Counted from the first letter of the stretch, positions 13,082 to 44,989 are shown. The stretch: 64,000 bases of DNA from an uncultured Gammaproteobacteria bacterium (GCA_964396715.1 CAYNFQ010000002.1:2234-66233); one strand, 5' to 3'. Numbers and translations: made by a program. Notes: generated by a model not told the origin, from the sequence alone.

Positions 13082-13387
13082 TCATTGTTTCACTTTCCTC
13101 ATAATCAAAACACTAAACGACCATGAAGTTACGGTAAATAACAATCCTAATACTACTATATGTAGTTTATTATTGAACCAGAATACCTCGCAGCTCTGCT
13201 GCGGGGATGAATGGTTCGATAAGAACTTGTCCCGCTTGCGGGATACCCCGCTGCTTGCAGCGGGGAGGAATTCATTTTGGTCAAGACCGGGAACTATCAA
13301 GGGTAGAATCATAGAGCCAGCAAAAAGCTGTCCAGAAGCCACACCTATGTCAGCAAGTACTTTAAGCTGATAATGGTTAAGTTTCAT
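13082..13387 (-). CDS. hypothetical protein (uncertain)
   Basis: ATGA start/stop overlap with the upstream gene suggests coupling. However, the ORF body covers two strong GC hairpins on the plus strand at 13185-13285, so it may be non-coding. Confidence 0.25.
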   Translation of the reverse strand: MKLNHYQLKVLADIGVASGQLFAGSMILPLIVPGLDQNEFLPAASSGVSRKRDKFLSNHSSPQQSCEVFWFNNKLHIVVLGLLFTVTSWSFSVLIMRKVKQ

Positions 13388-13833
13388 ATCCCCCTAAATT
13401 TTATTGTTTGGAAATGATAGATTGCCTCTTTGCCCCAATTGCCTACGCCATCGAATTTAGTCTCCGGCCCGATAAATATAGTATAGGTTACCCCCAGTTC
13501 AAAGGGGGTTTGGGGGATAATTTTGGCGGTTTTGCGATCAGGTGACAGCTCTATTTTTATTTCTGCCTTAGGATCTATCCTGAATTTAAATTCTCCGATA
13601 TTCTCCAAGGGGCGGTTAAAAGTTATCTCCACCACCTCTGTTGCGGAAACCACCGCATTTTCCAAAGGATCTGGTTTGGTGGCGATAATTTGAGGAGGTT
13701 CTGTTTGCTCATTTGCAGAAGGTTGTGGTTTAGCTTCAAAAGCTAGATCCTTTTTATAAATTCCCTTATACAGCAAAAAAGCGATCAGTAGTGTCAGTAG
13801 GCAAATTAGAGGCAGTAATGTTTTTTTATTCAT
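13384..13833 (-). CDS. signal-anchored secreted protein with Ig-like beta-sandwich domain (possible VirB8/PrgL-position protein)
   Basis: N-terminal TM/signal anchor followed by a beta-rich approximately 100-aa domain; last gene of the T4SS-like operon. Confidence 0.4.
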   Translation of the reverse strand: MNKKTLLPLICLLTLLIAFLLYKGIYKKDLAFEAKPQPSANEQTEPPQIIATKPDPLENAVVSATEVVEITFNRPLENIGEFKFRIDPKAEIKIELSPDRKTAKIIPQTPFELGVTYTIFIGPETKFDGVGNWGKEAIYHFQTIKFRGI

Positions 13834-13835
13834 AT

Positions 13836-16670
13836 TTATTGAGAAGTTATCTTTACATCATCCAGATACACAGCTGTCGGAAAATCATTTGTCACTCCAA
13901 ATCCAATATATACTCTTTTTCCTGATATTCCAATTTTTGAAAGCCCGTCAGCGCTTAAATTTATATTAATCTTTTTCCAGCCGGAAAAAGCATCAGAACA
14001 ATCAAAAGCAGCGCCTCCATCAATAATACACTCATACCCGGAGGAAAAATTCCCCTTACCACATTCGCTGAAATCAGGAACACCGGGAACATAACCAAGA
14101 AAAATTTCTTTCCCCGGATAAGGAGGAGTCTCCTCATTTGCTATATAAATATAAAACGGAGCAGACCTATTTGTCCCGACCTGATAGGTACCCTCACTTT
14201 TTATCTTGAACCAGAATTCAATTGAAATTCCGCTATTCATATTTGAGCTTTCAATATATTGTCTTACTTCAGGAAATATACGGAAACTTCCAGGTGTTGG
14301 ATCGCCCCCGTTATATATTTTGGGAGCTTGGCAAAGAGCTGCATTTTCTCCTCCAATTAGTATTGCAGATTTTCCGCTGTGAGCATCTGTAGTAAAACTT
14401 AAATTATCACTGAATTGACCCGCTTTATAAGAAGCTGTATTTGTCCACCCGGACAAAGAACTTTCAAATCCGCAGTTTTGTATAAGATTATTGCTTGTTT
14501 GGCAGGAGGCGGTATTATTTTGAGCGGAAGAAGTGCTAGTTGAAGAAGAACACCTCCCCCAGTAATTGGTATTAGTTTTTTGTACTCCGGCATAGTTATT
14601 ATCAGACAGATTGTCAGAGGACTTTAAAAGAGAGGAGTCTGGATCGGTAATCCCGATAAATCTTAAAGGGTTTACCAATACTCCGTTAATTTTAATTTTA
14701 TAGTGGACATGAGAGCCTGTTGAACCACCGCCTGTTGAGCCGACGATTCCTACAATACTTCCCCTTGTTACATTATTTCCTTTATCAACCCTGGAAGTTT
14801 GCAGATGTTCTAAAGTTATAACCGTAGATTTATCCTGACTGGTAATCTCTACAAATCTTCCCTCGTCACCATTAGCATCTGCTGCGCTGACAGTCCCATC
14901 AATGGTTGATTTTACAGGAGTAATGCCCTCTGTCCCGGCAATATCTATGCCGTTGTGGCATTGCAGAAAGCTGGAAGGACAATCTTGGTTGCGAACATTA
15001 GGATATCCTGGAATATTATAGCCGTATGGTGTGGTAATAGTTTCCTCAACAGGACAACCCAGGGATTGGTTTTGGGAGGCAATAATTTGTTGGCAGCTTT
15101 GGATGCTGGTCCAGATGTCAGTACCGTAGTTATAAGGGCCGCTGCACTTTAGTGGGTCTCCACCCCCATACTCTAAACAGCCATAATAACCTGAAGCTAC
15201 CTTATAGATAACATTTTGATTGCTATTCCAAGAAGGATCCCATTTTGTTCCATCTCCGATACCATACCCCAACTCTAATCTTTTTAAGATAAACCCAGCT
15301 GATAAAATAATACTTGTTTTAGGATCACAAAAATCTGTCTCAGTAAGCTGATCCAGGGATTTACCCAGAAAACCTGCTCCTAATTCTAATCCTGCAGAAA
15401 ACCCCCCTCTTGTACCAGGAGGCTGAAGCTGCATAATTCCTAAGGCTCCTGTTTGGCTTCTTGGACAACCGGCAATTGAGCTTAAACTGGGTAAATCTGC
15501 ATCTGTTTTAGAGGTAATTGTGGGAGACTCCACCCTGGCTATGGCAGCCAAGACAGCTGCTGGAACAGAAGAGATGCGAGAGGCTTCTTGAAAGTAATTC
15601 AAAAGAAGAGGGCTTTTATAGCTTTCTTGAGCAGGAGTTCTATCTCCTCTTGTAAACTGGCAACTGTTTAAATTTGTGATTGGGTAACTTGCAACAGGTG
15701 CAGCTTCACCTGATGGGGTTGTTTGGGAAAGGCCGCCAATTAAGCCTACACCCAAAACAAGGAAGAAAAAAGCTCCAACTAGACCCCAGATTAGCTTTTT
15801 TGATCCGGAGGACACAAAGGATTTAGATGCACTTCTTAATTCGGGACTGGAAAGTCTTTCAAAAGCATTAAGGCCGTGGTTTGCTGCTTTCCCCAAAAGA
15901 TTGTATGTGCCGGTCAGCCCAGGACCGGCAATACCTCTGCCTACTCCTTTGGCTATTTCCCAAAGACCCCTGCCTATTCTACCTAAATTTATTTTGGTAA
16001 ATCTTTGGCTAGCAGAGCCAAAATTTTTGGCTGCATTTGTAAATGAATCAGGCATTTTAAAACTGCGCCAGTTAAACCTTTGGAGAGCAGCAGTTTGCGC
16101 GTTTAGCCGGTTTGTTTCAGCTTCCAGTCTGTTTGCTTTATTAGTAGCAGCCGTGCCTTGGCCTGTTCCTCCCTCCATGCCTCCAATAGACGGAGGAGCC
16201 TGGTTGGCAATAAAAATACGCCGGGGAGTGGAAGAAATAGCTGGACCAGCAGGCAAGCCCGGCACACCCATTGTGCCCCCTGCTTCGCCAACAGGTACCT
16301 GTGTGCTTACGCCTTGTCCGGCTGAAGCTTCCTGACTGCCTACTTGTTCGCCGCTCCACCCTGCCGCAACAGGCTTTTCCCCTAACACTTTTGTTAATTC
16401 AATTTGCTGTGCCTGGGTAAAGTTACCCAAGAGAAATTTTCTATTATTTGGATCGGATAAATATCTGATAATGGCATTGTCATCTTTGAATTTGTCTCCT
16501 TGAAACTGTGGGAATCTGCGAAGCAATGAAAGACAGTAAGGTTTATCTACAGGTGTTCTTTGCCCGTTGATCATAGCAGAAGAAGGGATTTGTTTTAAGT
16601 CTTGTTTGAAGCCGCTATCTTTTAATGCCGAAAAAAATGCTATGAGTTTTTGAATATCCCTATAATCCAT
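13836..16670 (-). CDS. PrgK/VirB1-like bifunctional peptidoglycan hydrolase: lytic transglycosylase (SLT) + M23/LytM peptidase, single TM, Cys-rich C-terminal domain
   Basis: SLT motif ...ARVESP...GALGIMQL; M23 motif HNGIDIAG...GSHVHYKI; TM helix LIWGLVGAFFFLVLGVGLIGGL; adjacent to VirB4. Confidence 0.75.
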   Translation of the reverse strand: MDYRDIQKLIAFFSALKDSGFKQDLKQIPSSAMINGQRTPVDKPYCLSLLRRFPQFQGDKFKDDNAIIRYLSDPNNRKFLLGNFTQAQQIELTKVLGEKPVAAGWSGEQVGSQEASAGQGVSTQVPVGEAGGTMGVPGLPAGPAISSTPRRIFIANQAPPSIGGMEGGTGQGTAATNKANRLEAETNRLNAQTAALQRFNWRSFKMPDSFTNAAKNFGSASQRFTKINLGRIGRGLWEIAKGVGRGIAGPGLTGTYNLLGKAANHGLNAFERLSSPELRSASKSFVSSGSKKLIWGLVGAFFFLVLGVGLIGGLSQTTPSGEAAPVASYPITNLNSCQFTRGDRTPAQESYKSPLLLNYFQEASRISSVPAAVLAAIARVESPTITSKTDADLPSLSSIAGCPRSQTGALGIMQLQPPGTRGGFSAGLELGAGFLGKSLDQLTETDFCDPKTSIILSAGFILKRLELGYGIGDGTKWDPSWNSNQNVIYKVASGYYGCLEYGGGDPLKCSGPYNYGTDIWTSIQSCQQIIASQNQSLGCPVEETITTPYGYNIPGYPNVRNQDCPSSFLQCHNGIDIAGTEGITPVKSTIDGTVSAADANGDEGRFVEITSQDKSTVITLEHLQTSRVDKGNNVTRGSIVGIVGSTGGGSTGSHVHYKIKINGVLVNPLRFIGITDPDSSLLKSSDNLSDNNYAGVQKTNTNYWGRCSSSTSTSSAQNNTASCQTSNNLIQNCGFESSLSGWTNTASYKAGQFSDNLSFTTDAHSGKSAILIGGENAALCQAPKIYNGGDPTPGSFRIFPEVRQYIESSNMNSGISIEFWFKIKSEGTYQVGTNRSAPFYIYIANEETPPYPGKEIFLGYVPGVPDFSECGKGNFSSGYECIIDGGAAFDCSDAFSGWKKININLSADGLSKIGISGKRVYIGFGVTNDFPTAVYLDDVKITSQ

Positions 16671-16685
16671 ATCATTAGTGTATCA

Positions 16686-18449
16686 TCAAACATTTTGCCG
16701 GGCCAATAATTCCTCCGGGTTTGAGGTGATTAACTGATGTTCGGAAGGCGAGGCTACCACTCTCATGGCCACATGGGTATTTCCGGCAAAAAACAATCCT
16801 TCCCCGATGCCCTCAGACATCAAAAGCCTTTGTTCCCCTTCCGACAAATTAAAAACCCGGCCCAACAGATCAATTGAGGCGGGAGCCTGTTTTAACAGGA
16901 TTTGGATTGAAGAGTTGGAGATAATTTCCTTGCCCCGGTCGGTTGATAAAAAATCCTCCACATCCTGGGTGATAGTGGTCAGCCCCAAATAATACTTTCT
17001 TGATCTTTTGGCAATATCCACCAAAAAATCAGCCGAATCCTGATTTCTCATCAAATACCAGGCTTCATCTACAATCAGGATGCGTTTTTTGAGTTTGCTG
17101 CGGATCTTGGTCCAAATAAAATCCAATATCAGATGAATTGCCAGAGGCCTTAGCTGATCAGCCAAATCCCTGACTGAAAAAACAGTGAATGAGTTGGATA
17201 AATCAATATTGGAGCGGGAGGAAAATATGCCTGCTAAAGAGCCCTTGATAAATCTTTCCAAGCGGGCAGCCAGCTCCATGGCAGAGGGTTCTTCCATGCC
17301 GATCAACACCTTATACAAATCCTCCATCAAAGGAGGGCCGGATGGCGGGTTAATTTGAGTTTTGGGATCATCGGTGATGCCTTTTTGTTGGTATGTTTGT
17401 TTTAAGCTTCTGTCCAAAATTGCCGCCTCGGTGGCGGAAAGCGTCCCCAGGACAATTTTTAAAAATGCGGTTAAGGATAAAATTTTTCTTCCCAGCTCAT
17501 TCTCACCTGAGGATACATCAAAAGATAAATCAAACGGATTAATTTTGGCAGGGGATGATGATGAAAAATTAATATATTCCCCCCCGACAGCCTGCGACAG
17601 TGTTAAATACTCCTGCTCAGGGTCAATCACAATAATTTCCGTGCCAAACATTAAAGAACGCATAGCTTCCAGTTTTACTAAATAACTTTTTCCCGCTCCT
17701 GATTTGGCGAAGACCACAGAATTGGCATTCTCTAAACTGAACCTATCAAACAAAATCAGCGAATCATTATGCTCATTGATGCCGTACATGATCCCCTCAT
17801 TGGCTGTTAGCTCAGATGAGGCAAAAGGGAAAGTGGTGGCCAAAGCCGTGGTGTCCATATTGTGGGTTAAATTTAACAGGTCTTCTCCCAAAGGCAGGGT
17901 GGATTTAAAACCATCCTCCATTTGCAGTGTGGTTGGTTTGGCGCTCATGGAGAGCGATGCCAGGGTTCCCTCAACCAGTTTGGAAGTATTGTGCAATTCT
18001 TCCAAATTAACGCTGGGGACAGTGATGTACAAAGCAAACTGGAAAAATCTTTCCACGCCTTTGACCAGTTGGTCCTGCAATCCTCTGGCATCTTCCAGCG
18101 CCACCTCAACAGAGGGATCAATAGCTCTGCCCCGTTCCAGATCTGTTTGGATGGTTGCCTCCATCTCGGCAATTTTTCTTTTCAACTCATCCAAAACCCC
18201 GGCGGACTGGGAAGGATAAATAAACATGGAGATTAAAAGAGAATGGTCAAAGGAGATGACCGGTTCCAGCCAGTTTGGTTCCACAAAGCGGGGGTAACTG
18301 GATACAAAATAAGTTCGGGAAAACCTGTTGTCTATTCTGATGTGGTTAAAATCAACTTCAATTTCCGCAGGAGCAATCACGTCCTCCAAAGTTAATTGGA
18401 TAGTGGTATCTTCTGTTTTATTTTTTTTACCAAACAGGTTAAATTTCAT
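16686..18449 (-). CDS. virB4: VirB4/TrbE/CagE-family ATPase, C-terminal ATPase portion
   Basis: Walker A FAKSGAGKSYLVK; Walker B LIVDEAWYLM; 587 aa. Confidence 0.85.
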   Translation of the reverse strand: MKFNLFGKKNKTEDTTIQLTLEDVIAPAEIEVDFNHIRIDNRFSRTYFVSSYPRFVEPNWLEPVISFDHSLLISMFIYPSQSAGVLDELKRKIAEMEATIQTDLERGRAIDPSVEVALEDARGLQDQLVKGVERFFQFALYITVPSVNLEELHNTSKLVEGTLASLSMSAKPTTLQMEDGFKSTLPLGEDLLNLTHNMDTTALATTFPFASSELTANEGIMYGINEHNDSLILFDRFSLENANSVVFAKSGAGKSYLVKLEAMRSLMFGTEIIVIDPEQEYLTLSQAVGGEYINFSSSSPAKINPFDLSFDVSSGENELGRKILSLTAFLKIVLGTLSATEAAILDRSLKQTYQQKGITDDPKTQINPPSGPPLMEDLYKVLIGMEEPSAMELAARLERFIKGSLAGIFSSRSNIDLSNSFTVFSVRDLADQLRPLAIHLILDFIWTKIRSKLKKRILIVDEAWYLMRNQDSADFLVDIAKRSRKYYLGLTTITQDVEDFLSTDRGKEIISNSSIQILLKQAPASIDLLGRVFNLSEGEQRLLMSEGIGEGLFFAGNTHVAMRVVASPSEHQLITSNPEELLARQNV

Positions 18450-19195
18450 ACTTCTGTTCCTAATTCTTCCACCACAAACGGGTGGTTTCTTGAGTACTGG
18501 GTGGTAAGTGGCGGTACAGGAGGCTGGTTGAGTTTTTGTTCGGGAAGTGCTGATTTTAAGTCCGGTTGCACAACTATCTTTTGCGGCTCCTTTAGGGTCA
18601 CCTCCATCTGCCGGCCGCTTATTGAGAGGGGTTGGCTGCTTTGGAAACTCTGACCATTGTAGATACTGTAAAAAAGCTCAAGCAATTCTTGGCCGGTCAG
18701 TTGTGAAGTCTTAAGTCCGACTCTTGACAGTTGTCTTAAGACTTGATCCCTTCTTGGCAGCAGCACGGTTTTAATTTTCTGCTGCAGCGACTCTGTTGAG
18801 GCAGTCAGTCCCAACTCTAAGGAAAAAAGAGGAATGACTACATAGAATTTTTTATCCAGGACATCATTTTCCTTAATGGTAGTTTGAATAAACTGGCGAT
18901 AACTGACAATCATTTTTGATAAAAGCAGATTAGTCTGTATTTTTTGGGCCTTGTCCAAAAGGGTGAGGTATGAGTTGATATTTAACCTTTGAGAGTGGAT
19001 GACGATTTGGATACTGAATGATAAGGAGTTTAGCATTTGGGCAAAGCTGCCAATGATGGCCATTTGCTCTCTTTGGGAAAGCAGGCCAAAATTAACTGCC
19101 CCCACTTGTAAAACCAGTGCCCCTCCGCCTCCTTTGAGGATTAAAATGTCCTCCCGAATATCCTTAATAGACAAATGCTGCTGTGTTGTGCTCAT
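18446..19195 (-). CDS. VirB4 N-terminal domain encoded as a separate ORF (split VirB4)
   Basis: 249-aa ORF with a VirB4/CagE N-domain-like pattern; 4-nt ATGA overlap with the ATPase ORF. Confidence 0.55.
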   Translation of the reverse strand: MSTTQQHLSIKDIREDILILKGGGGALVLQVGAVNFGLLSQREQMAIIGSFAQMLNSLSFSIQIVIHSQRLNINSYLTLLDKAQKIQTNLLLSKMIVSYRQFIQTTIKENDVLDKKFYVVIPLFSLELGLTASTESLQQKIKTVLLPRRDQVLRQLSRVGLKTSQLTGQELLELFYSIYNGQSFQSSQPLSISGRQMEVTLKEPQKIVVQPDLKSALPEQKLNQPPVPPLTTQYSRNHPFVVEELGTEV

Positions 19196-20214
19196 CCTAC
19201 TGCCTCCTTTGCTGTGATTGTCAAAGGTGAGATCACCTGTCCTGTTAGTTCAATTTGCAAGACATCAAAACCGAAAGTATCTTTTTCCAATTCAATTTTA
19301 TAGGTGCCGTTTGGCAAAGGCGTTGCCCCTGAGAATTGGCCCAATTTGTTAGTTTTTAAGGCTCGGACAGGCAACCCTTCTTTATCGTAAATAACCACCA
19401 CCACGCCTTCCAGGGAGTTTCCGCGGGCATCCTTGATAATGCCGTTAATCACATTGGGAAAAGAAGTCAGGGCAATTTGGGTCGCTTTGCTTTTTTGTGG
19501 GGTGATAACTTTTACCTCAGGTTTGGCCATAGGCACAGGTATGGTTTGAGATTTTAGCTCCTCCTCGCCGACAGTTTCCAGTTGTTGTTTAATCTGCGAT
19601 GCCTGGTTGACCAAATTTTGCAAATCAGCCAAAACCTGGTTGACCTGCCCACTGTAATCAACAGGGATAGGTTTTGGTTTTTGCGCTTCTTCCCTGATAT
19701 GACTTAAGGTCCGTTCGGTTTGGATGATCTTCCATTGCAAATTTTGTGCCTCTTTTGCCAAATCAACAGTTTTTTTCAGATCATCCGCAGTAGGTATGGG
19801 TTCTGGCGGTATGACAGCCTGGCTGGGGACGGTGGTGGCTTCAGCCGGAGCTGGGGGATAAAGACCGGAAACATAGGTGACAAAGCGAGAACCAAACAGC
19901 GGGTCATTAACAGCAGTTTTGTTGTTTTTCTGCCAGACTCTTTTGGTGGGAGAATAAACAGCTTTTAAAAATGCCCCCAGCCAATAATCCAGAGGTCTTG
20001 AATTTATAGGCAAAAAAGCAAACGCAAAGCCCAAAGAGGCGGAAATTACAATCAGCGGCCAGGCAATTAAGGGATAGGCAGAGGAGACAAACACAAACAA
20101 AACATAGGCAATAGTTGAACCTGCTGCCAGATACATAAATTGTTTTAAGGTCATATCCCCGATCAGATGAAACTCAAAAGTGGTCACATTTTGCGGAATA
20201 GGATGCGGTTCCAT
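19192..20214 (-). CDS. VirB3/PrgI-like membrane protein fused to C-terminal carboxypeptidase-regulatory-like beta-sandwich domain
   Basis: N-terminal two-TM PrgI-like segment (FEFHLIGDMTLKQFMYLAAGSTIAYVLF). C-terminal GVVVVIYDKEGLPV...GTYKIELEKDTFGF CarbopepD_reg-like domain. ATGA overlap with the downstream VirB4-N ORF. Confidence 0.5.
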   Translation of the reverse strand: MEPHPIPQNVTTFEFHLIGDMTLKQFMYLAAGSTIAYVLFVFVSSAYPLIAWPLIVISASLGFAFAFLPINSRPLDYWLGAFLKAVYSPTKRVWQKNNKTAVNDPLFGSRFVTYVSGLYPPAPAEATTVPSQAVIPPEPIPTADDLKKTVDLAKEAQNLQWKIIQTERTLSHIREEAQKPKPIPVDYSGQVNQVLADLQNLVNQASQIKQQLETVGEEELKSQTIPVPMAKPEVKVITPQKSKATQIALTSFPNVINGIIKDARGNSLEGVVVVIYDKEGLPVRALKTNKLGQFSGATPLPNGTYKIELEKDTFGFDVLQIELTGQVISPLTITAKEAVG

Positions 20215-20270: not shown

Positions 20271-20660
20271 CTAAACGCTACTGACTAAACGCTTACTAAT
20301 ACCTCCTTTCTCTCTGTATACCATGACGCATAACATCTTGATGACTTCTAATAGTAATTCCTCCGATTTGCTAAAGCTCTCAGTTGGCGCTAACTGGAGT
20401 TCTTTAGAAATAACAAGCTGAGTATCCAATTCTAAAGCAGATCCGTAAGCAATAGCGTAAAATTGTAAGTATTCTTTATGTGATCGTCTAGCATAACCCT
20501 CTGCTATATTAGAAGGAATAGAAATTACTGCTCTGTGAATCTGTGAAATAATAACAAATTGCTCATTTCTGGGAAACAACGATGTTAATTTATATACCTC
20601 TTTGACTAATTGTATAGATTTTTGCCAGACAATTAATTCTTTATATGATTGTATTTTCAT
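20271..20660 (-). CDS. four-helix-bundle protein of the 23S rRNA intervening-sequence family (TIGR02436-like), copy 1
   Basis: WQKS...IAEGYAR...EYLQFYAIAYGSALELDTQL motif pattern; flanked by CTATACGCTAAACGC-type inverted repeats. Confidence 0.75.
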   Translation of the reverse strand: MKIQSYKELIVWQKSIQLVKEVYKLTSLFPRNEQFVIISQIHRAVISIPSNIAEGYARRSHKEYLQFYAIAYGSALELDTQLVISKELQLAPTESFSKSEELLLEVIKMLCVMVYREKGGISKRLVSSV

Positions 20661-20865
20661 AACTATACGCTAAACGCTACTCTCTATACGCTTCGTTATA
20701 CAATGTGAAAAAAATAATGGCAAGCAGCACAAAGGGGATCATTATGGGACAAATATGGTTAAATGACAAAATCCAAATGCCAAATTACAAATGAAATCTT
20801 AATTTCAAATTTTAAATTTTAGTCATTTGATATTGGAAATTTGAAATTCTTATGTTATTCTTAAT

Positions 20866-21053
20866 TTGTGGTGCACTAGTCCGATGTCATATCGGACCAA
20901 GGTGCAAAAAGGGAATCCGGTTAAAATCCGGAGCTGTGCCGCAACTGTGATTAGTTAGAGAATAGTAAATAGCGTACAGCGTTTAGTTATAAACAACTAT
21001 ACGCTAAACGCTTCTCTCTATACCCTAACTTTAAGTCAGGAGACCGACCACAA
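20866..21053 (+). ncRNA. cobalamin (B12) riboswitch
   Basis: Core AAGGGAATCCGGTTAAAATCCGGAGCTGTGCCGCAACTGTGA. B12-box-like AGTCAGGAGACCGACC. P1 candidates TTGTGGT/ACCACAA. Lies in the 5' leader of 21078..21986. Confidence 0.6.
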
Positions 21054-21077
21054 TTTAGATCCCGTAGCAGGAAAAAT

Positions 21078-22165: not shown

Positions 22166-22300
22166 TTTTGTCAGAATTTTAAGACGCGCAAGCGTCGCAA
22201 GCTCCGCTTATCAGTTTAATATCAAGCACTTCGACTACGCTCAGTGTAAACTTTTTCCAAGAATTGACACCAGGTTTGGGAAATTCTATGCTGGTTTAGC
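22166..22300 (+). repeat. dispersed promoter-bearing repeat, copy A (short variant)
   Basis: Shares ATCAGTTTAATATCAAGCAC...TGTTTGGGAAATTCTATGCTGG with three other loci. Ends in TTGACA-17nt-TATGCT. Confidence 0.7.
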
Positions 22301-28200: not shown

Positions 28201-29448
28201 AATGATGTCAGACCTGTTAGGAATAATTTTATCAGTAACTATAAATCATCCAGAGAGATATTTGCTAATCCAACAGCCATGAGAGAAGCCAAAAAAGGCA
28301 GACAGCCTTTCATAAAGAATATTCTGGAAAGGTTAGACCGTTCCGGCAGGGGTCAATTTACGGCCCTGGATAGGGCAAAGATAGATGGGAAGCCTTTAGA
28401 TGGGAAGCCTTTAGATGGGAAGCCTTTAGATAAAGTACCGGACGAAAGATTAAAAGAGATTTTTGAAGATGCAATCACGGATTCTTTTGTATTCCATATT
28501 ACTGCCAGGCAATTAGCTCTCTGGGAGGCAACCTTGGAATCTTCTGTGGATGCTCAAGATAATATTGTTTACACAGATAAATTTTCCACTGGCCGGATTT
28601 ACTATGGTAGTCAGGATATCCCCTGGGGAGTTAAGAGACTGCAATATCTGCCGGAATACTGGATGACTAATAAAAGGGAAAGAATAGGCAGGGCATGGAA
28701 ACTTTTGCCATTTGTCCCTCTTTTGAAATCCGGTCTTGCCCAGGAATGTGACGCAGAAAATCTGCCGGATCTGATTCTTAATGTTAATAAAGAACATATT
28801 GATGAGCCGGGACTTAAACAAATAGCAGCAGGTTATAAAGATGCGCAGGGTTGGAGACAGCGGGGGGAGACATCAGTGGATGAACAAAGAGGGGAAACAA
28901 ATTGGGCCTGGTGGGATAAGCTGACAGTAGATGCAGCTCAGATTCTTAAAACTTTACCACAATTAGACTTTCCTCCACAATCTAAAAATGATGCTACAAA
29001 ATTAGGCATATTTGATTATATTATTGATGTACCTAACCCAGAAGAATTTATGAAGAATCATCCAATCCCGTTTGCTTCTAGAAAGGTGCTTGTTGATACA
29101 GCTAGGGAAATACTTAAAAGAGAAGCACCATTAAATGTTTTCCTGGAGGCTCAACTGGGTTATAACCGGAGCGCAGGAGGTTCCGGAATAGGCCTTGAAA
29201 TGGGTGAGAGATGGCATTACAGGATATTAAACTGGTGGTTATCAGAAGTACCAGGTGATATAGATAATAAAAGAGGCACGGAAGGAGGATTAGAAGTTAA
29301 CAGTGATGCTGCAATATTCCTAAAGTTTATTACTATCAAAAATAGCTGGTCAGCAGGTGTATCTATTTTAGACGAGGCATGGAGGCAGGCGCGGGGTACT
29401 CGTGATGCCGGTGCTTCTGATAAATTGCCGCAGGAAATTATTACTTAA
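25273..29448 (+). CDS. giant hypothetical protein (1391 aa), K/E-rich, predicted alpha-helical/coiled-coil, no signal peptide
   Basis: Uninterrupted 4.2-kb ORF with AGGGAAAAATATG RBS. Contains a (DGKPL)x3 15-bp tandem repeat at 28384-28428. No catalytic motif recognised. Confidence 0.6.
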   Translation: MAERLSMAEATSGPGPEATPPVGEGQAVPQSSGELSPQRPWHISKEFDPKRTDYTSREEGNWNIFVDPKTNKEVARAIKMSGGADKEDGEYYDGSQEKPKEWWPFTEDEWKNLDIKDRIVEAAVLAMRHYYDMDNVDRAAKEKEFSMAYQDFSEYALGKKLYDGKDTRVIALELELVSFDKTEIEKYKADPEKQGQIEEALNNLDALEHEQAGIQNAWKDYGITDQNKNDDQLRPPHVAQDEWKKYLEGKDEIKTRLEAAKQALVALTSQEFFNKREKIKIEVGDKVKELKEEMEKKEKEAKKEGVRVDAEQWEIDAYKLEKELERSLLQGTEVSSDPDKSDADVPVEEILRFIKEEGEKPVAEQYTTGLERAKKVLEWNFHEARKLGILEDLEERFEERYKELATAVFSKSRTDQGDTEIETRRGPRNLTIAEIKETLAREADERNPNSLSNTAESDTFWKYLVRDGLVPGDRVNHFKGIRKAFVDGTYDQIYDSLSNLYNRYRADELRGKLQQQLDRDVITQQQYDRRINEINNPRNIQRISGEWDVRKYERDIMAGLDNEERAEAGRLFYIDRYYLTLTGTTEAQIEQGVNNYLTSILEGAHVYDVQTIMQKMQYLSQAIMSKKDVLMQSGMSATDAQAALTRINILAENRGEFYVMNFSAQNLLMDEYFIPLYDKWGGVKGIEKLKESLDMNDGLIAPCMLLFLDKKNRLLFQPAGFKGQGMKNIWAQRTLRDKIKGQIAEELVNFQAKKANSTELMEQATWQDFLRMKFEKRWDKKDEQDNKIFFKPKEETDAAKKAYQAEYMRVKTAAKPEDLESLKRLREEYTKQKNRYDRLLDRAKSAVETTWQVFNIFGESARLGAPSIIMRNGDHISIEDATYFYKFVLLDAMKKSGDTPAMMRWRAYQWVKNHRQSEKNPVIKDGVTTYELVAGLEDTGITKGEYDEFLKAVKELRLNGYKAAFREYSFEEIISRNDVRPVRNNFISNYKSSREIFANPTAMREAKKGRQPFIKNILERLDRSGRGQFTALDRAKIDGKPLDGKPLDGKPLDKVPDERLKEIFEDAITDSFVFHITARQLALWEATLESSVDAQDNIVYTDKFSTGRIYYGSQDIPWGVKRLQYLPEYWMTNKRERIGRAWKLLPFVPLLKSGLAQECDAENLPDLILNVNKEHIDEPGLKQIAAGYKDAQGWRQRGETSVDEQRGETNWAWWDKLTVDAAQILKTLPQLDFPPQSKNDATKLGIFDYIIDVPNPEEFMKNHPIPFASRKVLVDTAREILKREAPLNVFLEAQLGYNRSAGGSGIGLEMGERWHYRILNWWLSEVPGDIDNKRGTEGGLEVNSDAAIFLKFITIKNSWSAGVSILDEAWRQARGTRDAGASDKLPQEIIT
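28384..28428 (+). repeat. 15-bp in-frame tandem repeat x3 (DGKPL) within the 1391-aa ORF
   Basis: GATGGGAAGCCTTTA x3. Confidence 0.85.
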
Positions 29449-31252
29449 TTAATCCTGGTCTTCTTGGCCACGAAAAACCACCTTTCCATCCAACGAAATT
29501 GCCCGCTTTATCAAGTACTTGAGTATGTTGAGGGTTCCAAATAGGTCCTGATGTTTCTCCAAAAAGCGCTTTATTCCATCCGCCTAATTGTCCGCCTACG
29601 GCGCCTCGTCCTTGAGCAAAATATCCCTGACCGCTTCTGATACCTCCGGAAATTTCCTGACCAAGCAACTGTCCTGCCTGGCCCATTTTCCCAATAGCGC
29701 TAACAACGATATCCGGAATTTTAGGTAATGCCACCAATGCCCCGAAAGCCAAAAGAATTTTAATAAACTCCAAATCCATGCCACCCAAAAGAGGAAAGGT
29801 TGTGTTGCCTACAATTTGTATTGGTTCCGCAGCCAAAGCAACAGGCATAAAATTGTTGCCTGCAGGACTTACTGCATCAGTAACAACTTTAAGCGGTCCA
29901 AAATCCTTCCCCAAAATAAATGCTATAAAATAAAAGACAGCCAAGACTGCGGGAAAGATTAAAATATTACCCAGCATATTTAATACCCAGTTAGTGGCAA
30001 TTCCTTGTCTGCCGGGCAGGGAAGCAGCCAGAAATTGAAAGGGAGCGCTGATTGTTAGGAAAATAATGGTCAGATAAGCGGTGATTAAACGCAGGAGCAG
30101 TTTGAGCATAGCGTATATTAGCGCAATCATAGCAATGAAACTTAATATAAATCCTAACCAAAATTGAGTAGTGGCAGCTACGATACCTCCGGCTACTGCG
30201 GTTATTAGCGGACCCAGCCACAGCCCCAAAGGGGGAGGAATAGCCGATGTTAAGGGACTGACAAATTGAGCGGCGATAAAGCCTGTAAAAAGCCTTAGCC
30301 ATCCCTGGACCTCTCCGCTTAGTTTATCAAATATAGCTATCACTGCATTTTCTGCTTTTTCTTGGGTAACTATGCTCACAAATTCACTAAAAATACTTAA
30401 AACACTATCGCCTGATATTTGCTGTACCAAGTTTGTTCTTTGCGGGTCATCTAATTTTCCTTGAGCTGCTGCAAAATAATAGCCGACTGCGTTAGTACCA
30501 ATAAAAGCAGTATCAGAAATAAATCCTGCCAAAAAGTAGGAAAAAGTAATTAAAATTAAACCAATAACTAACCCAGGTAGTGCTGCCTGGGCTGTGATGA
30601 CTGTCTGTGGGTTAATCCTTTGCCGAAACATCACCATCAGCCCGATTATGACAAAAATTATTATCATCACCAGATAAGAAATATTTCTGGAAACCTGCCA
30701 GAGGGATAAAATTGGACTTAAGACACTGGCCCCTGATCCACCTACTTGAGCCCGGGCCTCTTTTACAACTCCCAGGCCTTCTCCCAAAGATGCCAGGTAA
30801 TCTGCTGTTCTGATAGGAGGGTTTGCATAAAGTCCTGCTATAAGGCCTGTGGTGGTCCCTAAAAGCCCTCCTGAAAGATTAGCTGAGGAAAGCACCGGAA
30901 TGGACTGAATTGCTCCCTGGGCATTCTGGGTCAGCTGATAAGTTAGACAGGGTTGGCCGATTACTGATGAACCAATAGAAAGACAGGAAAAGGTATGGAA
31001 TATGTTATGCACCAGAAGGTCTGTGTATAAAGGGGAGGTGGGGGGGATGGTAGGTGGTAGTGAGTAGGTTGTAGGTTGTAGGGAAGAAGGAGAAGGAGTA
31101 GAAGTTTGGGCAAAAACAGGAGTGGTGAATAATGTCAAAATCAAAATGACAAATAACAAATGAATGACAAAGCCAAAATGACAAATAACAAATTTTTTGA
31201 AATTTAGATTTGATTTGACATTTGACATTTGAGCTTTGAGTTTTCCAACCAT
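29441..31252 (-). CDS. VirB6/TrbL-like polytopic membrane protein (putative T4SS channel component) with Gly-rich C-terminus
   Basis: Signal peptide followed by at least six TM helices and large loops; location next to the pilin and VirB4 loci. The first approximately 20 codons are encoded by AAATGTCAAAT-type repeats, so the real start may be internal. Confidence 0.4.
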   Translation of the reverse strand: MVGKLKAQMSNVKSNLNFKKFVICHFGFVIHLLFVILILTLFTTPVFAQTSTPSPSSLQPTTYSLPPTIPPTSPLYTDLLVHNIFHTFSCLSIGSSVIGQPCLTYQLTQNAQGAIQSIPVLSSANLSGGLLGTTTGLIAGLYANPPIRTADYLASLGEGLGVVKEARAQVGGSGASVLSPILSLWQVSRNISYLVMIIIFVIIGLMVMFRQRINPQTVITAQAALPGLVIGLILITFSYFLAGFISDTAFIGTNAVGYYFAAAQGKLDDPQRTNLVQQISGDSVLSIFSEFVSIVTQEKAENAVIAIFDKLSGEVQGWLRLFTGFIAAQFVSPLTSAIPPPLGLWLGPLITAVAGGIVAATTQFWLGFILSFIAMIALIYAMLKLLLRLITAYLTIIFLTISAPFQFLAASLPGRQGIATNWVLNMLGNILIFPAVLAVFYFIAFILGKDFGPLKVVTDAVSPAGNNFMPVALAAEPIQIVGNTTFPLLGGMDLEFIKILLAFGALVALPKIPDIVVSAIGKMGQAGQLLGQEISGGIRSGQGYFAQGRGAVGGQLGGWNKALFGETSGPIWNPQHTQVLDKAGNFVGWKGGFSWPRRPGLIK

Positions 31253-32187: not shown

Positions 32188-33960
32188 TTAGCGGCGGAAT
32201 GGGTTGGGGGCGTTTCGACTTTGCTCAGATCCTATAAACTCACAGCCCTGTATGGGAAAAGGTTTTGTAGTTTTGAGTGCACCATCTGTAAGCGTCACTA
32301 CCGCTTCGGTAAAGTCTAGTACCTCTCCTTCTACGAGATTGTAGCCCCCACGGCCTACTCCGATATCCCCCCTACCCTGTGATCCTAGAGACTGAATGAA
32401 AACCCATGTGGCTAGTGGAGGGAAAATGCTCTCTCGTGGCTCTCTCGTACGTCCTACGATACCTTTTCCTGGAACGAGTTCGCCGGTGTATGACCATGAT
32501 ATTCTTGATGATCTTTCGTCTCCACGATCGACTCTTTTGTATATTCCATTAAACTCTGCAGTGAACCTTAGGTAGTCGCCTCCCGTATATTGCGTTGATA
32601 CCTCACATATCATTATGCCTTTCTCGAACGACGCTTTGCCAGTGGTAGCAATCATGATAGTTTTCCACCAGATTTCTGGATTTTTAATACTCTGTCCGTC
32701 GACTGTGTATATCTCAACACCGGTTTTTTGGACAAAGTCGATATTTACTTCCCCTGTTTGATACCGGCCTCGGAAAATGGTATCTGGTGGGAATCGCCGT
32801 AGGTTTTCAGCTGATGAGCGGGTGCACCATTCTGTATTGTCCGCTGTCGGGTCGCAGTACTTACTAAGGCCAATCTTGACTACTGTATCTTCAAAAGGTG
32901 AAACTGTAAATTCCTCAGGACGATATTGGAAGGTAGGTTGAGGTTTTAGGCGCACTGCTACCTTGTGGGGTTGTGGAGTGTTATTTTCTAATGTAATAGG
33001 CCACCAATATTCTGCCTGATCCTCTCCCCGTATACCTACCTGTTTAATAGCTACTGCAAGTTTGGCTTCTACCCCCAAAACAGCCCCCTTATCCAAATCA
33101 TTCCTTATTCCCCCACAAGCCTTTATAGAATCTTCATTAGGCCCGCATCTTCTTTTATCAGCAGTTCTGACTAAATTATCAGGGCCGATTAATGTACCAT
33201 CTTTATTTGTTGGGCTGGCTTTGATCTGTCCCTGGGGAAACTTTATTCCATCAGCAGGCAGAAATTTCCCATCCTTTTTGGCATACCAATGAAGATGAAT
33301 ACCAGAGGTATCTCCTCCAGATGGTTTTTCACAAGAAGGATTGCCCAACCTTTCCCCCTGTTTCACTTCTTGACCAACGTTTACTAACATGTTGGCAAGA
33401 TGCATATAACCGGTTCTTAAGCCTTGGCCGTGATCTATCTCCACAAGGCTGTGATTTTTATCAGTGGGATCTTTTTCATTTCCCACAACAGCTATCTTTC
33501 CAGAGGCTGATGCTTCCACAAACCTATTTTCCACAGGTTTACCACCAGGACAAGCCACCACCTCTGGTTGAGCAAAATCCAAAGCAGCGCGTACCCCGTT
33601 GGTTGAACCATCCGAGTGAGGACCAGCACTTAAATACCACAAGCCACTGAAAGGATAATCAAAACTGATTTCGCTTCTTGATTCAGCTGACTGGGCAGAT
33701 ACATTTGGCTGTGAGGGGGGCTTGGCTTCAGGGCCACAGGCAGCAGCTAGCAGACTCAAAGATGTTACACCTACAGCGTAAAGTGTTTTGACAGGTCTTG
33801 GTAAGATTTTTAACCAAGCTCTATGTCCTGGTTTAGGATCAGCAAGAGGGAGATCAACAATTCTTGCAACAGAGGCTATTCTTGCTTGTTCAAGTAACAT
33901 TTTTCTTGCTTGACTACCTTGTTCAAGTCTTTGGAAGATATTAGGCCCAAATTCTTTCAT
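32188..33960 (-). CDS. secreted/lipoprotein M23 (LytM) family metallopeptidase with large C-terminal domain of unknown function
   Basis: Lipobox-like LLAAAC; M23 motifs HGQGLRTGYMHL...GIHLHW. Confidence 0.7.
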   Translation of the reverse strand: MKEFGPNIFQRLEQGSQARKMLLEQARIASVARIVDLPLADPKPGHRAWLKILPRPVKTLYAVGVTSLSLLAAACGPEAKPPSQPNVSAQSAESRSEISFDYPFSGLWYLSAGPHSDGSTNGVRAALDFAQPEVVACPGGKPVENRFVEASASGKIAVVGNEKDPTDKNHSLVEIDHGQGLRTGYMHLANMLVNVGQEVKQGERLGNPSCEKPSGGDTSGIHLHWYAKKDGKFLPADGIKFPQGQIKASPTNKDGTLIGPDNLVRTADKRRCGPNEDSIKACGGIRNDLDKGAVLGVEAKLAVAIKQVGIRGEDQAEYWWPITLENNTPQPHKVAVRLKPQPTFQYRPEEFTVSPFEDTVVKIGLSKYCDPTADNTEWCTRSSAENLRRFPPDTIFRGRYQTGEVNIDFVQKTGVEIYTVDGQSIKNPEIWWKTIMIATTGKASFEKGIMICEVSTQYTGGDYLRFTAEFNGIYKRVDRGDERSSRISWSYTGELVPGKGIVGRTREPRESIFPPLATWVFIQSLGSQGRGDIGVGRGGYNLVEGEVLDFTEAVVTLTDGALKTTKPFPIQGCEFIGSEQSRNAPNPFRR

Positions 33961-33969: not shown

Positions 33970-34290
33970 TTAAGGTTGGCATATATTTTTTCCATTAGGA
34001 AGGACACACAAAGTTTTTATATCAAAAAAAGTTACATCTATTCCGGTAAAGGCTTTTATAAGTTGCAGTATCAGCCAGGCCAGGGCCATAAAAACCATTC
34101 CCAGAAGGGCCCAGGTGACTGTCTGGTGGGCTGCTGATACTGCCTTGGGTTCCCCTCCGGACATTAAATACTTAAAACCCGCCCAAATAAGCATAACCAA
34201 AAGGACAATAAATCCTAAGCCAACTATTACAGAAACCACGCTACTAAACACTTGTTCGATTTGTTCTAAGCCGGCTGGAGGTGGACCCAT
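33970..34290 (-). CDS. VirB2/TrbC-like T4SS pilin paralog 1
   Basis: Hydrophobic N-terminal helix, W.GFKYLMSGGEPKA...ALLGMVFMALAWLI two-helix pilin signature shared by five neighbouring genes. Confidence 0.55.
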   Translation of the reverse strand: MGPPPAGLEQIEQVFSSVVSVIVGLGFIVLLVMLIWAGFKYLMSGGEPKAVSAAHQTVTWALLGMVFMALAWLILQLIKAFTGIDVTFFDIKTLCVLPNGKNICQP

Positions 34291-34332
34291 ACTTTTAACT
34301 TAGCATGAAGAAGGACTAAAGATCAAATAGTG

Positions 34333-34746
34333 CTAGGGGGTCGGGGTCTTGAATTCCGCTGGGGTCGGGATAGGTAACGTGGTGAGGTCGGTAAATCCTA
34401 AAATTTGTGCTCCCACTCTCGCCAAAGCAAAGGCCACAGCCAAAACAGCCAGGCCGATTAAGGCGTTAATAATCCTGTTTCGCGCCTTTCCAACAGCTTC
34501 CTTATCCCCGCCTGAGACAATCCACTCAAACGCCCCCCAAATCAGCATCACCAAAACTACCAGCAGGGCAACAGCAAAAGAAATAGAAACAATGTTGGTC
34601 ACAAAGTCGCCAATCTGTTTATAGCCTTGGGGAGGAGGACTGATGGTGATGTCTGCTGCTGCCAGAGCTTGAACAGGCTGAAGTAAAGAGGCAATTGATG
34701 CACCGATAAAGGTAATTTTTTTCATTACTGACTTAACTATATCCAA
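34333..34746 (-). CDS. VirB2/TrbC-like T4SS pilin paralog 2
   Basis: Signal peptide with AAADI cleavage region; WGAFEWIVSGGDKEAVGKARNRIINALIGLAVLAVAFAL. Confidence 0.55.
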   Translation of the reverse strand: MDIVKSVMKKITFIGASIASLLQPVQALAAADITISPPPQGYKQIGDFVTNIVSISFAVALLVVLVMLIWGAFEWIVSGGDKEAVGKARNRIINALIGLAVLAVAFALARVGAQILGFTDLTTLPIPTPAEFKTPTP

Positions 34747-34779
34747 ATAATAACTGATTTGTCAAGAGGGGCAAAAATG

Positions 34780-35115
34780 TTACTGCTGCTGGTCGACAAA
34801 AAATGTGAATCCAGTAAATTGTCCCAAAACTTGGATTACCGCAAAAGCCACGGCAAAAAGCAGTATGCCGATGATGGCATTAATTATTTTTCTTTTGGCA
34901 GACTCCAGCTTTTCCTTATCCCCCTCAGATGTCAGCCAGTCCCATGCCCCCCAAAGCAGCATCAAGATTAAAACCACAGCTGCCAGAGAATAAATTAAGG
35001 CAATCAGGTTGTTTAAAAATTTAGAAATCCCCTCAGCCCCAAAACCAAATCTTTGAATTTCGGGAGGAGGACTAATAGTGCCAAAAGTATCTTTTATATC
35101 AGCAATAAGTTTCAT
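34780..35115 (-). CDS. VirB2/TrbC-like T4SS pilin paralog 3
   Basis: WGAWDWLTSEGDKEKLESAKRKIINAIIGILLFAVAFAV. Confidence 0.55.
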   Translation of the reverse strand: MKLIADIKDTFGTISPPPEIQRFGFGAEGISKFLNNLIALIYSLAAVVLILMLLWGAWDWLTSEGDKEKLESAKRKIINAIIGILLFAVAFAVIQVLGQFTGFTFFVDQQQ

Positions 35116-35546
35116 CCGATTATTTTTAAATCACTAATATTAAGTAGTCTTGCCAATAAAAACTGTAATATTAAAAATGCAAACATCAGTATTATAAACC
35201 CTACTATAGCATGGGTGATCATCTGTCTTGCCGAATCCATATCTTCTTTATTCCCTCCGGCCTTTAAAAACCTGAATGCTCCCAGCAGGAAATAAAGTAT
35301 TACCAAAAATGCGGCTACTTGAAATAAAGGCTTGACTAGCCTGGAGGTTCCACAACCTAAAGAGGTTATATCTCCAAAACCAAATTTAGAACCAATATCA
35401 ACCCCCTTTGCAGTTGTAGAGGCTGTATTTACCTCACTCTTGCATGGATCTTGTTCTTGGTCCGCGGCAAAGACAGGAGTAACAAGCAGTAGATAACTTG
35501 TAAGCAAAACTGTAAACTGTAAACTGTAAACTGTAACCTTTCTCAA
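35112..35546 (-). CDS. VirB2/TrbC-like T4SS pilin paralog 4
   Basis: Same signature (GAFRFLKAGGNKEDMDSARQMITHAIVGFIILMFAF). Probable TTG start at 35546 after a GGAGG RBS. The ORF track's ATG at 35639 would overlap the upstream gene by 97 bp. The signal peptide contains an (AAACTGT)x4 tandem repeat. Confidence 0.45.
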   Translation of the reverse strand: MRKVTVYSLQFTVLLTSYLLLVTPVFAADQEQDPCKSEVNTASTTAKGVDIGSKFGFGDITSLGCGTSRLVKPLFQVAAFLVILYFLLGAFRFLKAGGNKEDMDSARQMITHAIVGFIILMFAFLILQFLLARLLNISDLKIIG

Positions 35547-35875
35547 AATGGCGAGCCTCCTTTTGGTGGTAATATTTGAGCAGCAAAGGTGGCAATCAGG
35601 TAGGCTGTCAGTATCACCATCAGTCCGATTATGGCCCATTTAATTCTTTCTCTGGCTTTGGCCAGCTCTTCTTTTTTGCCTGAGGCTAAAATGTACTGGA
35701 ACGCCCCCCAAAGCAGCCAGTAAAAAGCCATAAAGATGGCAATATAAAAAGCAATATTTAAAAGACCGGATAAAACATCAGCCAGTTTAGCATTTTCGAA
35801 TTTAAAATTAAGGGCTTTTAAGCCGGAATCTTTTAGTAAATCGTTTAACATAAGTTTAGTAATGCCAAAGCTCAA
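35543..35875 (-). CDS. VirB2/TrbC-like T4SS pilin paralog 5
   Basis: WGAFQYILASGKKEELAKARERIKWAIIGLMVILTAYLI. Confidence 0.55.
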   Translation of the reverse strand: MSFGITKLMLNDLLKDSGLKALNFKFENAKLADVLSGLLNIAFYIAIFMAFYWLLWGAFQYILASGKKEELAKARERIKWAIIGLMVILTAYLIATFAAQILPPKGGSPF

Positions 35876-35977: not shown

Positions 35978-36376
35978 TTACTTTCTGATAATTGCCGAAA
36001 AAATTAAAGTCAATTCCTGAGCTTCTTGCCAATGCTTCCTTGCTTCCGGTGCAAGGTTTGGTACAGCTTTTGCCACCATCCTGAGCCAATGTTTGGTTTC
36101 CTTGGCTTCTTTTTTACAAATGCCTATTTTATGTTTGAAGTCTTTTTTGCTTTCCGCCCCGTCTGCTTCGCAATAGTTAGCTCCTATACTGGTGCCTGAT
36201 CGGACTAGTTGGCTGATAACAGGCAGTGTTACGGGATTTTGCGGTATTTTTTTAGCAAACTCCAGAGTCTTTTCCCCAAACTTGGCAGTCCTTTCCTCAA
36301 GATCATATTTCTTTTTAGTATTTGGATTTTGACCTTCATTTGTAATTTGAAATTTGTAATTTGACATTGTCATCAT
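35978..36376 (-). CDS. four-helix-bundle protein of the 23S rRNA intervening-sequence family, copy 2, embedded in the pilin operon
   Basis: GTSIGANYCEADGAESKKDFKHKIGICKKEAKETKHWL motif. ATGA overlap with the upstream pilin-adhesin gene. N-terminus is encoded by AAATGTCAAAT repeats. Confidence 0.7.
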   Translation of the reverse strand: MMTMSNYKFQITNEGQNPNTKKKYDLEERTAKFGEKTLEFAKKIPQNPVTLPVISQLVRSGTSIGANYCEADGAESKKDFKHKIGICKKEAKETKHWLRMVAKAVPNLAPEARKHWQEAQELTLIFSAIIRK

Positions 36377-44962: not shown

Positions 44963-44989
44963 GGTTATAACCCTGAGTGTAATCGAAGG

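Follow-up and report, generated by a model that had tools for sequence, protein, structure and literature searches.

The T4SS Core Operon

This study concerns a type IV secretion system (T4SS) encoded in a stretch of 64,000 nucleotides (nt), CAYNFQ010000002.1:2234-66233 of assembly GCA_964396715.1, the whole of which is called the window here. All coordinates are positions in this 64-kb window. The T4SS operon lies on the minus strand and is read from 20214 to 13384. This region is the core operon of a chromosomal T4SS of Patescibacteria (the Candidate Phyla Radiation, CPR), carried in a Candidatus Daviesbacteria genome. The genes are listed below in the order of reading, with the matches or predictions on which each assignment is based.

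20214..19192, minus strand: PrgI/VirB3-like fusion protein, 340 amino acids (aa); PrgI and CarboxypepD_reg matches
19195..18446, minus strand: TrsD/TraD-like VirB4 N-domain protein, 249 aa; VirB4_plasma and NF041427 matches
18449..16686, minus strand: VirB4 ATPase with the middle and C-terminal P-loop domain, 587 aa; NF045971 match
16670..13836, minus strand: membrane-anchored cell-wall hydrolase with SLT-like and M23 domains, 944 aa; Pfam M23 match and SLT motifs
13833..13384, minus strand: small signal-anchored Ig-like surface protein, 149 aa; Pfam Big_5 match
13387..13082, minus strand: doubtful gene, an open reading frame (ORF) of 101 aa with two predicted transmembrane (TM) segments; ATGA overlap with the Big_5 gene

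A preliminary description of this DNA had listed six co-oriented genes joined by ATGA overlaps. The ORF coordinates were right, but only five ORFs lie inside 13384-20214. The ATGA overlaps are real at the PrgI/TrsD and TrsD/VirB4 junctions but not at the next two, where gaps of 15 nt (VirB4/hydrolase) and 2 nt (hydrolase/Big_5) were found. The sixth ORF (13387..13082) has no family match and no tblastn match among the 80 related loci with which the locus was compared. Thus, five genes are supported, not six. The other structural calls of that description stand: a monoderm-type T4SS-like core, a VirB3 fused to a CarboxypepD_reg-like domain, a split and translationally coupled VirB4, a PrgK-like hydrolase, and a small Ig-like anchored protein. 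The core as a whole is backed by hidden Markov models, comparative genomics, and structure prediction, and its parts are treated in turn below.

As for the lineage, exact protein matches were found in a metagenome-assembled genome (MAG) of Candidatus Daviesbacteria (Microgenomates, Patescibacteria/CPR), GCA_016192255.1, on contig JACPUL010000006.1. Among the best 120 homologues of the ATPase (82-89% identity), all of those with a source name are Patescibacteria/Microgenomates, as are most of the named related loci.

Is this gene order common among the relatives? The order of the PrgI N-part, the PrgI C-part, TrsD, and VirB4 is kept in 70-75 of the 80 loci, and the exceptions are mostly contig ends. 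The PrgI gene is directly upstream in 70 of the 72 loci with enough upstream sequence. In a published survey of 3,035 genomes, only 22.6% of the Microgenomatia VirB3-profile matches were associated with virB4 (Quinonero-Coronel et al. 2025, Microb Genom; PMC12102498), which does not contradict the present count because the denominators differ. Two loci (L026 and L038) have enough upstream sequence and yet no TrsD or PrgI by virB4; dnaA lies upstream instead. These two may have a different arrangement, or their partner proteins may be too divergent for detection.

VirB4 Is Encoded as Two Polypeptides

The 587-aa protein matches the NCBIfam model NF045971 (CD1110 family VirB4, MPF-FATA type) with 385 bits against the curated cutoff of 325. 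Its translation contains the P-loop AKSGAGKS and, at residue 457, the Walker B motif ILIVDE, which together with this score confirms the ATPase call made earlier from the sequence. It also matches the C-terminal domain of VirB4 in PDB 4AG5 (E 7e-48) and P-loop_TraG PF19044 (E 1e-25). The NF045971 match spans model positions 184-733 of 752. Positions 1-183 are missing from this protein and are supplied by the separate 249-aa ORF. Similarly, in the VirB4_plasma model of 894 positions, the 249-aa protein covers 131-285 (E 7e-10) and the 587-aa protein covers 281-893. Since contiguous positions of one model are matched, the two proteins together correspond to one full-length VirB4 and are colinear with it.

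The 249-aa protein scores 29 bits against the TrsD model NF041427 (E 8e-7, model positions 15-200 of 201), while the cutoff is 200 bits. Thus, it is a remote TrsD homologue that falls outside the family by the NCBI criterion. Residues 9-180 are structured and are followed by a disordered Pro-rich tail. When the structural model was used for a Foldseek search of PDB, the top 12 matches were all TrwK/VirB4; TrwK chains were the only significant matches (E 6e-4, about 190 columns, identity about 12%). A sequence search of PDB with the TrsD profile returned nothing at E<=10. The local Pfam scan of the 249-aa protein was empty, and the precomputed Pfam assignments place PF26593 on all the TrsD-like homologues. 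PF11130, which I take to be the TraC N-terminal region family, is found on 3 of the 120 best N-part homologues. Together with the natural fusions described below, these matches show that the 249-aa protein represents the N-terminal domain of VirB4, produced as a polypeptide of its own and of the known TrsD/TraD type.

A rival explanation of the split is an assembly or sequencing frameshift in a true single ORF of about 830 aa, and two MAG loci indeed carry a single fused ORF, but this can practically be dismissed on the comparative data: TrsD and VirB4 are separate ORFs in 73 of 75 independent related loci, where they overlap in some cases and lie up to about 200 nt apart in others; for either part, each of the 120 best homologues has the split length (239-258 aa for the N-part, 564-608 aa for the ATPase); the N-part bears a conserved C-terminal tail of its own; and separate TrsD is a recognised family (PMC12102498). 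The relatives therefore settle the point for which re-inspection of the reads had been proposed.

The two exceptions are natural TrsD-VirB4 fusions (L027 378-2834 and L049 1865-4381) with single ORFs of 819-839 codons, one of them labelled Amesbacteria. The fused protein of L049 aligns in a single stretch with both the CD1110 model (26-732 of 752) and TIGR00929 (6-724 of 792).

After a variable Pro-rich linker, the TrsD-like protein ends with an invariant HPFVVEEL (window 18446-18520). I considered this tail as a general docking peptide for split VirB4, and the idea was rejected, as the tail is found in only 8 of the 75 loci. It is confined to a Daviesbacteria-level clade (L001-L008), is missing in both fused forms, and may serve as a docking peptide peculiar to that clade.

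A PrgI Fusion Protein and a Variable Wall Hydrolase

The first gene of the operon encodes a 340-aa protein whose match to Pfam PrgI (PF12666) is above the gathering threshold (37.6 bits versus 27). The match to CarboxypepD_reg (PF13620) at 28 bits is just under the cutoff of 32.3. The structure of the product of 19192..20214 was predicted with AlphaFold2 (AF2). The TM hairpin of PrgI was located at residues 26-44 and 49-67 by the TM scan and at helices 23-42 and 48-67 by AF2. It is followed in the AF2 model by an amphipathic helix (74-96), a Pro-rich linker, a coiled-coil hairpin (143-214), and a beta-sandwich (257-334) that is predicted with confidence (predicted local distance difference test, pLDDT, 80-88). 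In a Foldseek search of PDB, the best matches of the beta-sandwich were CnaB2 (8bdw, E 4e-5) and the transthyretin-like domain of carboxypeptidase D, with E values from 4e-5 to 2e-4 and target-normalised TM-scores (TMt) of 0.65-0.68 for single-domain targets. Thus, the C-terminal domain is probably of the transthyretin/CarboxypepD_reg/CnaB-like fold class.

The N and C parts of PrgI lie within one ORF in 69 of 70 related loci, with total lengths of 283-622 aa, and the beta-sandwich ranks among the most conserved portions of the protein. A search with the C-terminal 200 aa yielded 1,826 clusters at 50% identity, 1,152 of them at E<=1e-10. Among 106 non-giant 50%-identity representatives with the C-module, 102 match PF13620 at E<=1e-3 and 85 match PrgI. 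The representatives with names come from Microgenomates-group lineages, for example Woykebacteria. As judged from these sequence comparisons, the PrgI/beta-sandwich fusion is conserved across Microgenomatia.

On which side of the membrane does the C-module lie? Seven Lys/Arg residues follow the second TM segment of PrgI, and the net charge of its N-terminus is negative. VirB3-VirB4 fusions exist in other systems (PMC12102498). From the positive-inside rule and by analogy with these fusions, the coiled coil and the beta-sandwich are predicted to be cytoplasmic.

The 944-aa hydrolase consists of a cytoplasmic N-region (1-290), a single TM segment (293-311), an SLT-like domain, an M23 domain, and a C-terminal domain of about 250 aa. 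The M23 assignment is clear (Peptidase_M23, 66 bits; motifs H572xxxD and H654xH; M23 matches in PDB). The SLT-like domain is below the Pfam cutoff but keeps the motifs E381-S and GxMQ (GIMQ). The resemblance to PrgK suggested earlier is retained. No PDB or Pfam match was found for the C-terminal 227 aa, which may resemble a sugar-binding module of the CBM4/9 type. In the relatives, the gene right after virB4 encodes a large anchored protein whose ectodomain carries M23, CHAP, SLT_2, C39_2, DUF11, or nothing detectable. The window hydrolase has only the cytoplasmic N-region in common with those of L002 and L003, and essentially nothing in common with those of L001 and L005, although their VirB4 sequences are 79-85% identical. 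Thus, the hydrolase ectodomain is hypervariable and is swapped even between close relatives.

The 149-aa protein at the end of the operon matches Pfam Big_5 (28.8 bits, cutoff 23.6) and has a TM segment at residues 7-25. Its gene is kept only in close Daviesbacteria loci (6 of 80).

Pilin Genes and a Candidate VirB6 Upstream

A second block of T4SS genes, which had been overlooked in the preliminary description, was found on the same strand 9-17 kb upstream of the operon.

36373..37875, minus strand: secreted protein of 500 aa in which a large N-terminal region precedes a VirB2-like pilin domain at the C-terminus; Pfam T4SS_pilin match
33970..35875, minus strand: five small VirB2-like T4SS pilin genes (106, 137, 111, 175, and 110 aa; two TM segments each); PF18895 matches
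32188..33960, minus strand: M23 peptidase-domain protein, 590 aa; Pfam M23 (49.7 bits) and NCBIfam M23-type matches
29441..31252, minus strand: polytopic membrane protein of 603 aa with about 7 TM segments and a large N-terminal loop, candidate VirB6; TM scan

The five small pilins score 31.7-43.7 bits against T4SS_pilin (PF18895), each over the cutoff of 26.6. The 500-aa protein matches the same family with 35 bits at residues 418-486 and has a signal-like TM segment (1-19) and two C-terminal TM segments. Six VirB2-like genes are thus encoded between 33970 and 37875. The gene of the 590-aa M23 protein separates the pilin array from the VirB6 candidate.

In the relatives, pilin arrays lie upstream of VirB4 in 14-15 of the 80 loci. 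In 23 of the 80, the same strand carries a homologue of the 603-aa protein right after the pilin genes and upstream of PrgI-TrsD-VirB4. Since both are directly upstream of PrgI-TrsD-VirB4 in these relatives, the pilin array and the polytopic protein of the window are linked to the T4SS. The 603-aa protein has no match in PDB or NCBIfam. One of its 14 homologues matches TrbL/VirB6 (PF04610) weakly (E 0.0015), while the window protein does not. Its position and topology and this one match make it a candidate VirB6 analogue.

The two halves of the T4SS are separated by toxin-antitoxin (TA) genes, a divergent gene of 1391 aa, and a riboswitch-controlled gene. The TA and abortive-infection genes are at 22286-24167 and 31296-31975 and comprise an AbiEii toxin gene, a Gp49-like/HTH pair, and a PIN gene preceded by a small ORF. 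The 1391-aa protein (25273-29448, plus strand), whose gene separates the VirB6 candidate from the PrgI operon, is highly charged and has no TM segment and no family match. Its position is kept in L003 (3989-7561), where the identity is 28% over 1,310 aa, and to some extent in L005 (2221-3798). This protein may be associated with the T4SS locus.

Position and Conservation of the Locus

On the other side, the operon converges with genes of the replication machinery.

9840-11159, plus strand: dnaA, convergent with the T4SS operon
11317-11775, plus strand: gene of an endonuclease resembling archaeal Holliday junction resolvases (PF10107), between dnaA and dnaN
11851-12969, plus strand: dnaN, convergent with the T4SS operon

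Because rnpA, yidD, yidC, and jag lie beyond dnaA, this part of the window is a replication-origin region. The neighbourhood is shared by many relatives: in tblastn searches, dnaN/dnaA were found near VirB4 in 58 of the 80 loci, 2-9 kb downstream in 57 of them and upstream in one. Furthermore, VirB4 is more conserved than both DnaA and DnaN in 50 of 50 loci (median identities 60%, 40%, and 34%, respectively). Constraint on the T4SS locus exceeds that on dnaA or dnaN. The GC content of the operon resembles that of its flanks.

Possible Function and Alternative Explanations

Taken together, I estimate with a probability of roughly 85% that the region encodes the energising and membrane core of a chromosomal, vertically inherited T4SS of the Patescibacteria type, derived from MPF-FATA, that functions in host interaction and not in conjugation. 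The templates for a mechanism are the R388 structure, in which VirB3 anchors VirB4, and the VirB4-driven extraction of pilins. Following them, the TrsD-like protein and the ATPase would reassemble into a VirB4 hexamer, which PrgI/VirB3 would tether to the membrane. The hexamer would extract VirB2-like pilins from the membrane so that a pilus or channel could be formed through a VirB6-like pore. The anchored hydrolase would open the peptidoglycan of the cell itself or of the host. The machine would serve episymbiotic host contact and macromolecule exchange rather than conjugation.

Host interaction is the most likely purpose by analogy with a cultured system. In S. epibionticum, a T4SS cluster and a pilin array are essential for growth as an epibiont (Wang et al. 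2023, Cell; PMC10633639), and no recognisable relaxase or coupling protein is encoded in that cluster, SEML1_0006-0019 (PMC10633639). The preliminary description had likewise reported that the window lacks a relaxase and VirD4, and this was confirmed: no Pfam match to either was found in window ORFs of >=225 aa or in the called genes of the 10 kb past the window end.

Several points weigh against this interpretation. The function is assigned wholly by analogy with one cultured Saccharibacterium, which belongs to another class. The search for a relaxase and VirD4 covered about 75 kb of one contig, so that either gene may lie elsewhere in the genome; in Patescibacteria, homologues of the type IV coupling protein (T4CP) are commonly encoded at a distance from virB4 (PMC12102498). 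No VirB8-like component was found. The VirB6 assignment stands on position, topology, and a single weak Pfam match, and the SLT score of the hydrolase (18.3 bits) is under the Pfam cutoff of 21.3. The fold class of the beta-sandwich is typically found in extracellular proteins, and its membrane side is a prediction only.

A more specific idea goes beyond this interpretation. The PrgI module, predicted to lie in the cytoplasm next to the two-piece VirB4, may dock or gate the substrates of a T4SS without a linked coupling protein, and the hydrolase, with its conserved cytoplasmic anchor and swapped ectodomain, may be a host-specific wall breacher. I regard this combination as doubtful. If it were true, the machine would be a device for feeding on or penetrating the host, not a secretion or conjugation system.

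Could the machine import DNA? The preliminary description had proposed DNA uptake or attachment instead of conjugation. Import systems of the ComB and Ced types are powered by VirB4 and are generally described without a relaxase or a VirD4-type coupling protein. A machine of this kind, working with ComF/ComEC, might bring in host or environmental DNA as a source of nucleotides, whose synthesis is missing in Patescibacteria (PMC10633639). The comFC gene reported earlier corresponds to a ComF-family gene at 44143-44841 (TIGR00201, E 6e-32, below the curated cutoff), but it is 24 kb off and unlinked to the operon. The ATPase matches the archaeal importer CedB weakly, with 49 bits against a cutoff of 700, which is far weaker than its matches to conjugative VirB4, and CedD gave 22 bits against a cutoff of 600. 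In S. epibionticum, competence needs type IV pili and ComEC. Cells that lack comEC lose competence but remain viable, whereas the T4SS is indispensable (PMC12857230). DNA uptake is therefore unlikely.

It is still less probable that the operon is the transfer module, or the remnant of one, of an integrated conjugative element that came from a Gram-positive and moves DNA between cells. The closest curated families (the CD1110-family VirB4, TrsD/TraD from staphylococcal plasmids, and pCF10 PrgI) are indeed conjugative, and elsewhere the window contains TA modules, the AbiEii toxin gene, and the gene of a large serine recombinase. However, no relaxase, T4CP, or integrase was found beside the operon, which lies by the oriC genes with synteny in the 58 loci mentioned above, across many Microgenomatia lineages. 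Its GC content, like that of the flanks, and the conservation of VirB4 above DnaA and DnaN also argue against this origin; such conservation is the opposite of what a drifting remnant would show. The published phylogeny points to vertical inheritance within classes (PMC12102498). A mobile-element origin was rejected on the synteny, the conservation, and the finding that no relaxase, T4CP, or integrase gene adjoins the operon.

The window adds no new kind of system. The significance of such loci is that the Patescibacteria T4SS is among the few machines known to be essential for epibiotic life, in a group to which a large part of bacterial diversity belongs. The locus offers several handles for further work. 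VirB4 behaves as a split protein whose N-domain and ATPase are only rarely fused in nature, and structural models of the Microgenomatia machine must place an extra domain of VirB3 that is conserved throughout the class. There is also a candidate for the "missing" VirB6 of Microgenomatia, and the variation of the hydrolase ectodomain is as expected of a host-range determinant.

Other Features of the Window

A cobalamin riboswitch (63.6 bits) was found at 20852-21066 on the plus strand, directly upstream of a 302-aa ORF (21078-21986, plus strand); the pair is divergent from the T4SS operon. The ORF has no Pfam or NCBIfam match and has Cys-rich C-terminal motifs, and its homologues occur in L002, L048, and L078. 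AdoCbl-II riboswitches lie at the equivalent place in the Daviesbacteria loci L002 (5762-5841, minus strand) and L005 (7918-7996, minus strand). The ORF may encode an uncharacterised B12-regulated protein of a CPR genome.

The short intergenic repeat TAGCGTTTAGCGTATAGTT occurs in 8 copies with <=3 mismatches, against 0 expected, at 20262, 20661, 20970/20995, 25167, 42386/42415, and 44704. Two pairs are inverted. Two direct repeats flank a gene of the 23S-rRNA-IVP/four-helix-bundle type (20271-20660). The repeat resembles a REP-like element or the border of a cassette.

A group I intron (81.9 bits) is located at 59671-59952 on the plus strand. It is intergenic, is contained in no rRNA or tRNA gene of the window, and lies by a 23S_rRNA_IVP-family gene (59283-59648) and the large serine recombinase gene (60024-61700). 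Past the recombinase there is an apparent integrated island (60024-64000, continuing on the contig beyond as L083 1-9949) with genes for a prokaryotic Argonaute (Piwi), a DpnII/MboI-type restriction enzyme, a D12 methyltransferase, a LexA-like repressor, and a NucS-like protein. Four of the five tRNA genes of the window are tRNA-Ser genes (gct, tga, cga, and gga), located at 44873-45078, 52694-52776, and 55451-55538. Since a Rce1-like ORF (45012-45710) overlaps tRNA-Ser(tga), its true start is probably further downstream.

Comparison with Known Systems

One of the systems compared is TrwK/VirB4-TrwM/VirB3 of R388 (PDB 7O41 and 8RTB). The TrsD-like structural model matches TrwK, the ATPase matches TrwK weakly by sequence, and the anchoring of VirB4 by VirB3 is the mechanistic template used above. 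In contrast to the window system, that of R388 is diderm and includes VirB7/9/10, its VirB4 consists of one chain, and its VirB3 carries no additional domains; the sequence identity is about 12%.

PrgK of pCF10 is membrane-anchored and has LytM/M23-type and SLT-type domains. The window hydrolase resembles it in the anchor and in both domain types, and the PrgI match above the cutoff is a further likeness to the Prg/Pcf system. Unlike the window proteins, however, PrgJ (VirB4) is a single polypeptide, PrgI is short and has no C-terminal beta-sandwich, and PrgK has a CHAP domain. In addition, pCF10 is conjugative, with a relaxase and a T4CP.

In the Trs system of pGO1/pSK41 and the Tra system of pIP501 (MPF-FATA, pGO1 subclass), a separate small TrsD/TraD that is homologous to the VirB4 N-terminus is encoded just before the VirB4-like ATPase. 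They also have a small membrane protein of the VirB3 type and a VirB1-like hydrolase that contains two lytic domains. On the other hand, they reside on plasmids, come with a relaxase, oriT, and T4CP, and lack VirB2-like pilins, and the TrsD match of the window protein is remote.

The closest counterpart is the T4SS of the Patescibacteria clade itself. The shared traits are a separate TrsD by VirB4, PrgI/VirB3 upstream, an M23 wall hydrolase downstream, a VirB2-like array, no relaxase or T4CP nearby, a location near dnaA/dnaN, and a monoderm-type composition without VirB7/9/10. In the survey, the same architecture, the lack of a relaxase, and the proximity to dnaA were found across 2,407 Patescibacteria assemblies, and the VirB4 proteins form a monophyletic Patescibacteria clade nested in MPF-FATA (PMC12102498). 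TrsD, a remote homologue of the VirB4 N-terminus, is the commonest virB4 neighbour; PrgI/VirB3, M23-bearing VirB1-like proteins, near-absent relaxases, and dnaA/dnaN proximity are also described; and in Microgenomatia, VirB2 arrays are abundant and VirB6 is scarce (PMC12102498). A 2025 review considers this T4SS unique among monoderm T4SSs and speculates on a pilus conduit (PMC12857230), and a 2026 preprint reports tubular structures at a host interface.

What differs from these descriptions are the coiled-coil and transthyretin-like C-domain of PrgI, the TrsD-VirB4 fusions, the ectodomain swapping of the hydrolase, and the VirB6 candidate. In the literature search, no description was found of the PrgI/beta-sandwich fusion, the TrsD-VirB4 fusions, a hypervariable hydrolase ectodomain, the VirB6 candidate, or conservation above DnaA/DnaN. 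Since the separate TrsD, PrgI, the M23 proteins, the lack of a relaxase, and the dnaA proximity have all been published (PMC12102498), the T4SS in the window is not new. It is mostly an ordinary example of the system described in 2023-2025, with a few details that had not been described.

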